Positions 5,373 through 36,271 of a stretch of DNA of 48,479 nucleotides are shown in pieces (position 1 is the first letter of the stretch; each line of letters opens with the position of its first letter). The stretch comes from a bacterium (GTDB lineage Bacteria; Patescibacteriota; Patescibacteriia; JACQSD01). The DNA lies in NCBI GenBank assembly GCA_030648795.1, contig JAUSHC010000002.1, positions 1 through 48,479 of the forward strand, given 5' to 3'. The position numbers and the translations under genes are program-made. The notes beneath the pieces are model-generated. The model did no database searches and had not been told where the DNA came from. It saw nothing but the letters and a program-made list of their open reading frames with translations.

Positions 5373-6104
5373 ATGAAAGTTTGTATCATTGTTCCAATGT
5401 ATAACGAAGCGGTTCTTGCGCGTCTTTCACTCGAGACAATTCTTGAATTTATTCCAAATCTTCCAGGCACTACGACCCTGTGCGTTGTTGATGATGGGTC
5501 GCGAGATGCGACGCCCACGATTGTTGCCGATGTTATGCGTACAAAAGAAGGACAATGCGTACAGCTCGTTTCGCACAAAATAAATCAAGGATATGGTGCG
5601 GCGCTCCGGACAGGGATGTGTTTTGCGATTGACGGCGATTATGATTACGCTCTTTTCATGGATAGCGACCTTACGAATCATCCAAAGTATCTTGCTGCGT
5701 TCTACGAGAAAATGCGCGAAGGATGCGAGTATATTAAAGCAACACGGTATGTGGAGGGCGGTGGGATGGAAGGAGTGCCACTCAAGCGACGACTTTTTTC
5801 GCAAGTGGGAAATTTTATTGGTGGCGCTCTCTTTCAACTCCCCTTGACCGACGTCACAAACGGATTTCGCGCGGTGAAGGTAGATATACTGCGTGAGTTG
5901 CACTTGAAAGAAAATGGGTTTACTATTATCATGGAAGAGCTATGTCAGGCAAAGAAGTTGGTTCATTCGTTTGGTGAAGTTCCCTATATTCTTACCGACA
6001 GAAAGGTGGGGCAAGGCGATACGCATTTTCCCTATACCATGCGTACTATGGCAACTTATTTACGTTACGCATTAATCGCATTTTTTTATGAAAGACCAAA
6101 ATAA
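5373..6104 (+). CDS. Glycosyltransferase family 2, polyprenol-phosphate sugar transferase-like (DPM1/ArnC-like)
   Basis: VCIIVPMYNE, VVDDGSRD, NQGYGAALRTG and FMDSDL motifs. The start was moved to the internal ATG at 5373, immediately after the upstream stop. Confidence 0.8.
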   Translation: MKVCIIVPMYNEAVLARLSLETILEFIPNLPGTTTLCVVDDGSRDATPTIVADVMRTKEGQCVQLVSHKINQGYGAALRTGMCFAIDGDYDYALFMDSDLTNHPKYLAAFYEKMREGCEYIKATRYVEGGGMEGVPLKRRLFSQVGNFIGGALFQLPLTDVTNGFRAVKVDILRELHLKENGFTIIMEELCQAKKLVHSFGEVPYILTDRKVGQGDTHFPYTMRTMATYLRYALIAFFYERPK

Positions 6105-27864: not shown

Positions 27865-28076
27865 TTTCTTTATTGTTATAAAACGGTATACGCGTCGCAC
27901 TCCGGCACATCCCCTTTCGCTTCGTTCGTCCCGACCCAGCCGTCGGGATTCACTGCTTGCCTTCCCGTCGCTCGTCCGACCGCGGTCGGACACCATGCCC
28001 GCTTTGGTCGGCAACGCCGCTCAAGGGAAACGCGCCAGATTGCGCCGTCTGATTTTGGACGGATCTACCGCAGGTG

Positions 28077-28212
28077 CTCCCGCCGACAATAGCGGAGGTT
28101 TCGATGAAAGTGCAGCTAGGGCGGAGGTGAAGGGGTATCCGAGGCGAGGGTACGCCATCGGAGGAGCCCCCGCGCCGAGACCAGCTGACTTTCCCGAAAC
28201 CGGAGCGTGTCG
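28077..28212 (+). repeat. Core of GC-rich structured repeat, copy A (whole element about 27890-28225)
   Basis: 131/136 identical to 36093-36228 on the same strand. Internal long-range complementarity between 28097-28117 and 28183-28201. Confidence 0.9.
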
Positions 28213-28360
28213 CCGGCGAGCATTGCGGTGGAGCCGACATAGAATACGCTTAGTTCTAGAGAGAAAAAGAGAGCCCCTTGACGGTATTGGGGAGGGGGGA
28301 GTAAGGTCATGGGTAGGTGGGGAAAACCCCGACGCCCGGGGCGTTCCCGGGTTATATTTC

Positions 28361-28466
28361 TTCGTTTTTTCACTCTTTTTCTCCCACCACCATTCCTTCT
28401 CTTCTCGTTCTTTCCACCCACTACTCTTCTTTTCTCTTTTCTTCCCCCTTCTCTCCCAACCCTCTC
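28361..28466 (+). repeat. 106-nt polypyrimidine (C/T) tract
   Basis: By hand count about 95 of 106 nt are C or T and only 2 are G. It ends at the GAGGTG before ATG 28478. Confidence 0.85.
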
Positions 28467-33871: not shown

Positions 33872-35308
33872 TTATTCACTAACCTCTTCCCATGTAAGAA
33901 TACGATTGTCTCCTTGTTTGGGGAAAAATGGTGGTGGAGTAAATATAAGTCGCGTATCGTAGTCTCCTTCTTCACCGCGATATCCGGAAATAATTTTTCC
34001 GGAATCATCCACCCATGTGAATGCAGGAATTTGATTACTGATCATAGTGCCTTTTCGACTGATGGTTGATCGGAGAATAAATGGGGCGTAGGATTTATTG
34101 CACTTATAGCCATAACGGTTTAAACGTTCGTCTGAACAATAATAATTTCGAAAAATGTGTCCTTTCTGCGCGAAAATCGCTGCGTGGAGTTCCAATGTGT
34201 CCGCTGATTCAAGGGGAATGAGAATGTCGTTTTGTGCAATGATCCCGATTGATCCCAGTTTTCCTTCATTCCCTGATGCGGGGGTGGTGAGGCCGCCATT
34301 AATGATAATGGATGCGCTGCCAATCACGGTGACTGGTCGTTTCGTTGCGCCGTCAACCCAGAGTGTGTCATCAAAAAAGAATAAACTTTTTTCTCCGCAT
34401 GCATTTGCCTCCGGGATTGTCACCGTGCGGACTAGGACCTCTTTCTTTATTCCTTCCGCAGTCTCAACCCATCCGGTGCGTCCATCGTATCCCCAAATTT
34501 TTGGCTTGACTTCGGTAACGCGGAAGATGTTGAGCGTTCCGTTTTCATTCATTCGTGCATGATAGCCCAATGCTTTTGATGGTTCAAAATAGGTGTTCGC
34601 TGCTTCAGCTTGTTGTTGAAAAACAGGAAGGCGCAAAATGATCGTATCAAAATCGATTTTTCCTGTTGGAAAATCCCATAGCCCCTTTGCCCCGCCATCT
34701 CCTGCTCCCCAAACTCCCGGCTTTGTTATTGGTGGATTGCAGTCATGTTCAGCGCCGCAGATGTATGTTTGCTTTGCGCTCGTTATGCGGCTTTTGTCGT
34801 CCGAGTCCATACGGATTCCTCCATTGGCGTGTACCGGTCCTTTGAGTTCTCCGCCGCCGAACCATACATTACTATCGGTAAGGTAGGAATATTTCGTGAG
34901 TGCGGGAGCGCCATAGGTGATCGCAATATTTCGGGTGCGTTTTTGATCGGCACTGTGTCCTTTGACGACGACACGTGTACTCCCGCTGCACGTGCTTCGC
35001 GGGGAAATCGTGAATTCGAACGTGCCTACGAGTCCGCCCTGCGGATCACGATATTCATTTGTGGAAGGAGTGGTGTCATCCGGTGCGTGTGCCAAGCGCC
35101 ATCGTGCGTATTCAATACCTGCTTCTGCGGAGGCAAACGCTTGTCCATCAGCAATACTTCTTTGACTGACGTGTATCTCAAGCTGGACATAGGAAAGAAG
35201 CGCAGTAGTGAGGACAAGAAAGATGCCAAGGAACGCGAGCGCCACCGGAAGCGTCGAACCCCGTACATCATTTATGATAGCATACTTTTGCTTCTTCATC
35301 ATTTTCAT
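33872..35308 (-). CDS. Large PilX_N-like pilus-associated protein
   Basis: N-terminal RGSTLPVALAFLGIFLVL segment resembling the PilX N-terminal domain, then a large beta-rich region. Confidence 0.6.
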   Translation of the reverse strand: MKMMKKQKYAIINDVRGSTLPVALAFLGIFLVLTTALLSYVQLEIHVSQRSIADGQAFASAEAGIEYARWRLAHAPDDTTPSTNEYRDPQGGLVGTFEFTISPRSTCSGSTRVVVKGHSADQKRTRNIAITYGAPALTKYSYLTDSNVWFGGGELKGPVHANGGIRMDSDDKSRITSAKQTYICGAEHDCNPPITKPGVWGAGDGGAKGLWDFPTGKIDFDTIILRLPVFQQQAEAANTYFEPSKALGYHARMNENGTLNIFRVTEVKPKIWGYDGRTGWVETAEGIKKEVLVRTVTIPEANACGEKSLFFFDDTLWVDGATKRPVTVIGSASIIINGGLTTPASGNEGKLGSIGIIAQNDILIPLESADTLELHAAIFAQKGHIFRNYYCSDERLNRYGYKCNKSYAPFILRSTISRKGTMISNQIPAFTWVDDSGKIISGYRGEEGDYDTRLIFTPPPFFPKQGDNRILTWEEVSE

Positions 35309-35997
35309 TCTTCTAAACTTGCTTTAATGTTTCGGAGTTCTACTATGGTGTTCACCGTTGTTCCTCTTGGGAGCTGACCGGGAGCGACGTCGATTGCAAA
35401 GTTGATACCAACAAGCAGGACGGCAGTTATATCGAGTGGAGGAAGGATTTCCGTTCCATCTTTTTTATAATAACGAAATAGGGGATCGTTGCCCGTAAGG
35501 TACTGTGCGATCGTCCGTACGCTTTCGTCGCTCTCGTGGTAGTTTGGCGGGTCGCCAAAGGGTTTCGTGATTCCCCGTTTTAAAAGATTATTTTCACGCC
35601 AATAGCGAATACGTTCTCGGGAACTATCGCGGTCAATATCGCTGTAGAATTCAAGTCGATTTGTTTCTGCTTTGATAAGCGGATAGTCGCCTTTGTCGGA
35701 AACAATCGCTTCGCGCAATTCTTTGACGATCATATCCTGTGTACGACGCGCGATAGCGACTTGTGTCGTCTGGTCTGCAGTAATGCGATAATTTTTATAC
35801 CCTTGGACCGTAAGCTCGCCAAGCATCATCGTCACGAGCGAACTTATTGCGACCGCGATGATAATTTCGATAAGCGAAAATCCTCTCTCCCTCGTGGCGA
35901 CGCGGATCCTGTCATGGCGCGCTGCCTCATCCTCTCTCCTCCGGGAGGCAACCCTCTCGCCGTCCGGGATGCTTCCCTCCAGAGCTACCCCAAGCAT
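35305..35997 (-). CDS. Prepilin-type N-terminal cleavage/methylation domain protein (pseudopilin); start uncertain
   Basis: ERGFSLIEIIIAVAISSLV pilin signature. The nearest in-frame ATG (35997) lies inside GC-rich repeat copy B, which would give a 38-aa leader. Confidence 0.65.
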   Translation of the reverse strand: MLGVALEGSIPDGERVASRRREDEAARHDRIRVATRERGFSLIEIIIAVAISSLVTMMLGELTVQGYKNYRITADQTTQVAIARRTQDMIVKELREAIVSDKGDYPLIKAETNRLEFYSDIDRDSSRERIRYWRENNLLKRGITKPFGDPPNYHESDESVRTIAQYLTGNDPLFRYYKKDGTEILPPLDITAVLLVGINFAIDVAPGQLPRGTTVNTIVELRNIKASLEE

Positions 35998-36092
35998 CCC
36001 TCCCGGCGGGGGTTCCCGACGCACCGTCTTTGGCAGCATCGCCATGCCACCCGCTATGCAGCGGATTGAAAGGGACGGATCTGCCAAGTGTC

Positions 36093-36228
36093 CTCCCGCC
36101 GACAATAGCGGAGGTTTCGATGAAAGTACAGCTAGGGCGGAGGCGAAGGGGTATCCGAGGCGATGGTACGCCATCGGAGGAGCCCCCACGCCGAGACCAG
36201 CTGACTTTCCCGAAACCGAAGCGTGTCG
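36093..36228 (+). repeat. Core of GC-rich structured repeat, copy B (whole element about 35912-36240)
   Basis: See copy A. Lies between two minus-strand pilin genes. Confidence 0.9.
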
Positions 36229-36271
36229 GAGGCGAGGATACTGACGGATCCGATTCCAAAAGAGAATAGTA

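Follow-up and report, generated by a model that had tools for sequence, protein, structure and literature searches.

A probable read-through of palindromic hairpin repeats as a long prepilin leader in a Patescibacteria type IV pilus operon

Where does translation of a pseudopilin begin when several hundred nucleotides of GC-rich, palindromic DNA separate its cleavage site from the gene before it? The window, by which we mean the whole stretch of 48,479 nucleotides that was analysed, is contig C21 of a 92-contig, 1.1-Mb genome (G000; 47% GC, assembly 94% complete), and one close homolog of its pseudopilin carries the NCBI label Candidatus Uhrbacteria. Gene order and domain matches place a type IV pilus operon on the minus strand of the window, with the following features in operon order:

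38890–40602, minus strand: pilB, first in the order given here
37679–38752, minus strand: pilC, after pilB
36272–37606, minus strand: 444-aa pilin-like gene with an N_methyl motif and a CarboxypepD_reg domain, ending with TAA at 36274–36272
Between the stop of the 444-aa gene and the pseudopilin Gly(−1) codon: GC-rich gap of 388 nt holding two hairpin modules
35305–35883, minus strand: pseudopilin Gly(−1) codon and mature part of 192 aa (FSLIEIIIAVAISS…, with Glu5), whose stop overlaps the start of the next gene
Downstream of the pseudopilin, minus strand: 478-aa gene, then pilM, pilN and pilO

The gap has a GC content of 62%, against 47% genome-wide, and leads into a recognisable prepilin cleavage site (…RERG/FSLIE, the slash marking the cut), with the Gly(−1) codon GGA at 35883–35881 and Phe(+1) at 35880–35878. 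The protein shows the type IV prepilin motif G/F(I,L)-x-L-x-E followed by a hydrophobic helix, and its N_methyl match (PF07963; residues 137–160 of the ORF from ATG 36300) scores 27.6 bits against a cut-off of 21.2; a prepilin peptidase (PF01478; C46, region 1337–1675) is encoded in the genome. No short basic leader was found. As the first-pass annotation had pointed out, the pilin frame holds no ATG, GTG or TTG from the Gly codon up to the ATG at 35997, which is indeed the first in-frame ATG, although the leader it would give counts 39 aa with the Gly and not the 38 aa given there; the conserved start described below would give 140–144 aa.

Such a gene might have been silenced by the insertion and now be a decaying pseudogene, given 388 nt of structured DNA before it and no canonical start near G/F. 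Its 192 mature codons are, however, intact both here and in the ortholog of a sister species of the same genus (G001), with a dN/dS of 0.075 at a dS of 1.24, and the overlap between its stop and the start of the following gene persists, so that coupling is retained. By this measure purifying selection on the mature pilin is strong and the gene is alive; because of the low dN/dS, together with the presence of a prepilin peptidase gene, we consider decay very unlikely.

The first-pass annotation treated 35885–36271 as a single element, a second copy ('copy B') of a GC-rich element present elsewhere in the window as copy A. This holds for part of the stretch only, since 36073–36253 matches copy A (28057–28237) with 92% identity, whereas 35885–36072 is a separate module. 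The statement that the element abuts the pseudopilin was confirmed, with the second module ending at 35885, one base before the Gly codon. The two modules are:

36073–36253, no strand assigned: module m2, a 180-nt imperfect rod-like hairpin with a covariance-model core at 36092–36237
35885–36072, no strand assigned: second hairpin module, B_up, with a main hairpin at about 35903–36054, adjoining the Gly(−1) codon

A covariance model of the 146-nt m2 core was used to scan G000, G001 and 59 other genomes of the class, and it found 11 copies in G000 and one full and two partial copies in G001, with no match in the 59 others; because repeats fragment assemblies, these copy numbers are lower bounds. 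Across 12 model-aligned copies, 94.9% of cells are paired and compensatory changes occur at 27 of 46 pairs, while the covariation score of 0.524 compares with 0.199 in shuffles (none of 500 reaching it) and at most 0.105 in slid controls. These compensatory changes and the covariation indicate that the hairpin is selected for. Seven of the 11 copies have the same end 1–105 nt from the stop of a convergent gene or, equivalently, the reverse complement of m2 lies directly behind a stop codon on the mRNA strand; on the operon mRNA it begins 18 nt past the upstream stop. The placement of copy B on the plus strand did not hold, as no single strand can be assigned: in the covariance-model alignment of the 12 copies, G-U and A-C appositions in the helices number 17 to 13, without strand bias. 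The plus strand had also been a candidate RNA sense on the basis of a MAFFT alignment that included the basal stem (about 28 G-U against 8 A-C), and was dropped in view of the 17 to 13 count.

Several other features of the m2 surroundings were observed. The 5′ flanks of several copies are T-rich and the 3′ flanks C-rich, and in the window some 120 nt made up of pyrimidines only (CT-rich; 28340–28460) stand between copy A and the next ORF. Contig ends are close to several of the copies (on C47, C23 and C17, within about 800 nt of the contig starts), and a Logan contig (L057) begins at window position 36121, so that an independent assembly also breaks inside m2.

The second module, B_up, behaves differently in the two species. 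An nhmmer search of G000 found no other copy of 35885–36072, and its interpretation as a diverged module 1 of copy A was rejected, since the alignment was poor and the module-1 profile gave no match. In G001, by comparison, the module occurs at three places, one of them behind comEC, and there the match extends as far as the base that corresponds to 35885. Its computed fold is a rod of −93.5 kcal/mol (z −2.3), in which one stem changes from ATGCTT/AAGCAT to ACGC/GCGT between G000 and G001 with pairing compensated. The stems are 95–96% identical between the two species, against a flanking third-position identity of 55% and a dS of 1.24, and the two B_up copies of G001 are near-identical to one another, linker included. 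Judged from these alignments, the conservation of B_up would reflect either a function at the RNA or DNA level at this locus or a recent spread or gene conversion of the element. Behind comEC (L014; G001 contig C55, 5150–5620), the pilin-proximal module is accompanied by an m2 hairpin of reduced length and a piece of module 1, and their arrangement is the inverse of that in copy A of the window; the modules have been reshuffled between the species.

The start codon from which such a gap could be read was sought in relatives, as the first-pass annotation had proposed, by comparing eight close pseudopilin homologs (62–83% identity) at the DNA level; a scan of metagenome contigs added a single close relative on a truncated contig. 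In relatives without the insert the start is an ATG that overlaps the 3′ end of the upstream gene, and the equivalent codons are present here:

36298–36312, minus strand: two ancestral pseudopilin starts, ATG 36312–36310 and ATG 36300–36298, overlapping the last codons of the 444-aa gene

In insert-free relatives this ATG pair (…ggacaaacctATGaag…) begins a short leader. The pilin of L037 starts at an ATG within the final codons of the gene before it (…ggacaaacctATGaagaaatccctctggcaccatTATAAtcgcGGCatc), giving a 12-aa leader (MKKSLWHHYNRG/ISLLE) with only 4 nt between stop and Gly; L038 has the leader MNKRLKISPWRRNEPG/F, and L039, which carries an unrelated insert, starts at the ATG pair with MKMLRF…. 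The insert is lacking in L037, L038 and more distant relatives, and in the last of these, leaders of 4–15 aa follow directly after the upstream stop. Within the clade, the start codon falls in the last 29–41 nt of the upstream gene, and without an insert the distance from the upstream stop to Gly(−1) is only about 4 nt. Among the eight close relatives the gap measures 4, 4, 46, 79, 79, 109, 328 and 388 nt, in every case 1 mod 3 and open in the pilin frame, and the conserved upstream ATG is in frame with G/F in all eight. The earlier proposal that the insertion disrupted the native start is contradicted by this comparison, as ATG 36300 and ATG 36312, which lie beyond the insert as seen from the cleavage site, are intact and in frame.

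Further species of the clade (L036, 2780–2890; L035, 46–125; and L040) carry unrelated in-frame inserts in the same 4-nt stretch of the leader, and the inserts seen there among relatives include one 105-nt tract with CCGAAT/ATTCGG repeats and two A-rich 75-nt tracts. The leader segment of this prepilin thus appears, from the sequences compared, to be a recurrent insertion hot spot.

The insert itself is 384 nt long, a multiple of 3, and has no stop in the pilin frame, which in G000 is the sole stop-free frame of the six. GC-rich sequence is poor in stops, and in shuffles the probability of the pilin frame being open was 0.019 (G000) or 0.038 (G001); G001 has one further open frame, and in G000 two other frames hold a single stop each. 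Between the inserts of G000 and G001 there are indels of +31, −94, +4 and −1 nt, none of them a multiple of 3, which sum to −60 and keep the frame, with half of m2 deleted in G001 at this site. In the segment bounded by the +4 and −1 indels, DNA of 95% identity is read in one frame in G000 and in another in G001, which puts the conservation of that segment at the nucleotide and not at the protein level.

From these comparisons, we favour, with a probability of roughly 0.6, an insertion of the kind described for Rickettsia palindromic elements (RPEs) that ribosomes translate into a leader of some 140 aa, which prepilin peptidase removes. The gap holds two GC-rich palindromic modules, the reverse complement of m2 and then the second hairpin module, the usual place of m2 behind stop codons coinciding here with the leader-coding segment of an overlapping next gene. 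Ribosomes would still initiate at the ancestral ATG 36300 or 36312 and translation would run through both hairpins, so that the cytoplasmic leader of the prepilin would measure some 140 aa (140–144) instead of about 12, or about 120 aa in G001. The insert likely supplies the basic residues just before Gly(−1), and the prepilin peptidase of the genome would cut at G/F and leave the mature minor pilin unchanged. We infer each of these steps, from initiation at 36300 or 36312 through hairpin read-through to cleavage of the 140–144-aa leader, from the sequence comparisons above. The first-pass suggestion that the element donates a new leader is likely right as far as the peptide goes, with some 128 of about 140 leader residues coming from the insert, and wrong for the start codon, which is ancestral. 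Against read-through stands the computed stability of the RNA, since translation would have to open two extended hairpins of high stability (about −90 kcal/mol for the B_up stretch). A leader of 140 aa would also lie well beyond the lengths known for type IV prepilins, and neither ATG 36300 nor ATG 36312 is preceded by a clear Shine-Dalgarno sequence.

Translation might instead begin inside the insert, at ATG 35997, 36039 or 36045 in G000 and at a GTG, TTG or CTG in G001, with a leader of 39–55 aa and the ancestral ATG unused. In-frame ATGs are present in the G000 insert, gene callers placed the start at one of them, ATG 36045 (P0001), and the m2 hairpin would then escape translation. None of these ATGs is conserved in G001, including the ATG 35997 that the first-pass annotation had considered as a donated start; the nearest canonical starts there are a TTG and a GTG, 75–77 codons upstream. 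The candidates also lie within stable stems, without a good Shine-Dalgarno sequence, and an internal start leaves unexplained both the open, in-phase frame up to the ancestral ATG in two species and the case of L036 and L039, which carry unrelated inserts and have no in-frame ATG, GTG or TTG other than the conserved ATG, the one called by NCBI in L036. We therefore regard an internal start as unlikely, while still deserving attention. A further non-canonical candidate, an ATC at 35907 (MRVATRERG/F), was rejected, as the codon is ACC in G001.

A better ribosome-binding site lies closer to the cleavage site, in a different frame:

35844–35930, minus strand: out-of-frame 28-codon ORF with a Shine-Dalgarno sequence before ATG 35930, its offset conserved in G001

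Initiation at this ATG, or at ATG 35915, followed by a −1 shift into the pilin frame before the cleavage site, would profit from a near-ideal site (GGAGGAGAGAGG-ATG) and from the conservation in G001 of both the −1 offset and a TTTT run at the Phe codon. The ATG at 35915–35913 had been described as out of the pilin frame, correctly so; ATG 35930 is out of frame likewise, both being in a common frame one base from that of the pilin. An indel placing ATG 35915 in frame, or an assembly error as the source of the offset, was rejected, because G001 keeps the identical offset across the same 35 nt in spite of eight substitutions, and a Logan contig from an independent assembly matches the window with 100% identity between 36121 and 33805. 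A heptamer of the form X XXY YYZ is absent, however, and slippage on TTTT would place Asp (G000) or Ala (G001) at −1 and not Gly, while the Gly codon itself is kept between the species with a synonymous change from GGA to GGC. Both ATGs lie in the 3′ arm of the B_up hairpin, and since the same sequence at the comEC locus of G001 faces the 3′ end of that gene, the ORF is probably a by-product of the hairpin arm rather than the pilin start. On this evidence we hold a −1 shift to be extremely improbable.

Additionally, the insert may have been kept for its RNA, as an intercistronic structure that tunes the stability or translation of the minor-pilin and pilMNO message, or as an antisense transcript; the former had been among the readings offered at first, and either is compatible with read-through translation. 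Both modules are strongly structured and conserved far above flanking synonymous sites, B_up stems holding 95–96% identity where those sites are near saturation and including one stem with compensatory changes, and m2 copies favour one orientation, immediately after stop codons. Effects of this kind on the processing and stability of mRNA are known for ERIC and Correia elements (PMC10969869). Recent spread or gene conversion, suggested by the near-identity of the two G001 copies including the linker, may however explain the conservation of B_up, and the deletion of half of m2 in G001 at the pilin site speaks against retention as RNA, as does the finding of no promoter-like site on either strand of the insert (the promoter and terminator scan yielding nothing relevant), no Rfam match and no strand bias. 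We consider retention as RNA improbable, though not negligible. A related and more doubtful possibility is that the hairpins have been taken over by the host, acting as a translated, ribosome-melted RNA barrier (or as antisense RNA) that sets the amount of minor pilin and PilMNO relative to the upstream pilin, with the leader of about 140 aa serving as a functional cytoplasmic pro-domain. We know of no type IV filament whose prepilin has such a pro-domain.

Similar in-frame insertion is seen elsewhere in the genome. Module 1 of copy A (window 27884–28044) belongs to a separate structured repeat family with about 10–11 copies in G000:

Contigs C22, C40, C1, C17, C87, C23, C6, C9 and C48: module-1 loci besides the window, about 10 in all

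Most copies begin 0–26 nt past the stop of a gene with the same orientation. Three in-frame GC-rich segments derived from module 1 are located in loops of a conserved multi-pass membrane protein of 799 aa (C6:17218–19617), and two of these segments have the peptide SGHGSAAS in common; homologs in four to five other genera are without the three segments. Residues 44–77 of the protein are possibly a fourth repeat-derived segment. Taking the pilin leader and this membrane protein together, in-frame tolerance of inserts is, as far as such sequence comparison can tell, a trait of the family. The elements would then behave like selfish hairpin repeats, with the stem-loop kept by compensatory changes and the repeats tolerated in frame within genes. 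Both m2 and module 1 are palindromic units of about 100–200 nt dispersed in multiple copies in one genome. A smaller 20-nt perfect palindrome, CCTGCCTGCCGGCAGGCAGG, is nested in a module-1 copy (G000 C23, about 480–500) and recurs in the apex of the m2-like hairpin behind comEC in G001 (L014, C55, about 5470–5490), which looks like a smaller hairpin repeat inserting into larger ones.

Searches for a mobiliser or a described RNA family returned little. The Y1_Tnp (RAYT) domain PF01797 has no match in the 94% complete G000 assembly and three in G001; the flanks of the 11 m2 copies share no direct repeat indicative of a target-site duplication; and no terminal inverted repeats, parent IS element or transposase were identified for the elements, the basal stem of m2 being itself an inverted repeat. 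The genes flanking m2 copies are housekeeping genes, with no recombinase and no association with an IS110 bridge RNA, omega-RNA or retron. Rfam 15 gave no match in the window at gathering thresholds, and 35700–36400 gave chance-level hits only (E above 5).

These results show that the genomes of ultra-small Patescibacteria carry RPE-like families of structured hairpin repeats, with insertions both after stop codons and within genes. On the reading we favour, the pilin locus would offer a testable case of an insert that is tolerated by virtue of its place in a peptide removed by cleavage. Should the long leader be made and processed, it would exceed by about five-fold the leader length that the pilin insertion pathway and prepilin peptidase are known to accept. 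The start assigned to this gene by gene callers is wrong, and operons with overlapping starts and such inserts would be mis-annotated systematically.

The elements work like RPEs, which reportedly go back to Ogata et al. 2000, in the sense of a behavioural class and not of a sequence family. Both are dispersed palindromic repeats of about 100–180 nt in a reduced genome, and both are intergenic but also occur in frame and free of stops inside genes, where they are, or here would be, translated as extra peptide segments; in-gene insertion has been described for RPEs and for intragenic ERIC and REP elements (PMC10969869). The differences are that the host phylum here is Patescibacteria (Uhrbacteria-like), that the elements, in a genome of 47% GC, are rich in GC and built of modules, of which at least three hairpin types occur singly or joined, that they markedly prefer positions just behind stop codons, and that the insert lies in a cleaved-off leader peptide and not in the mature protein. 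ERIC/IRU, Correia (CREE) and REP/REPIN elements are likewise imperfect palindromes co-transcribed in operons and folding into long RNA hairpins, and REPINs keep their pairing through compensatory changes. In contrast to Correia elements, no Correia-type terminal inverted repeats with TA duplication were found for the elements here, and in contrast to REPs and REPINs, no RAYT/Y1 transposase was detected in G000 and the elements are longer than REPs.

Known prepilin leaders are shorter than 10 aa in type IVa and 15–30 aa in type IVb pilins (PMC3927602). The pseudopilin resembles a type IVb prepilin in that its leader would be cut after Gly(−1) by prepilin peptidase, in its hydrophobic mature N-terminus with Glu5, and in a predicted leader longer than that of type IVa, but differs from it in the predicted 140–144-aa length and in a leader made of repeat-element sequence rather than a dedicated one. 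By these comparisons, in-frame insertion of the RPE kind extends to a new phylum, and what it entails for a prepilin here is unusual.
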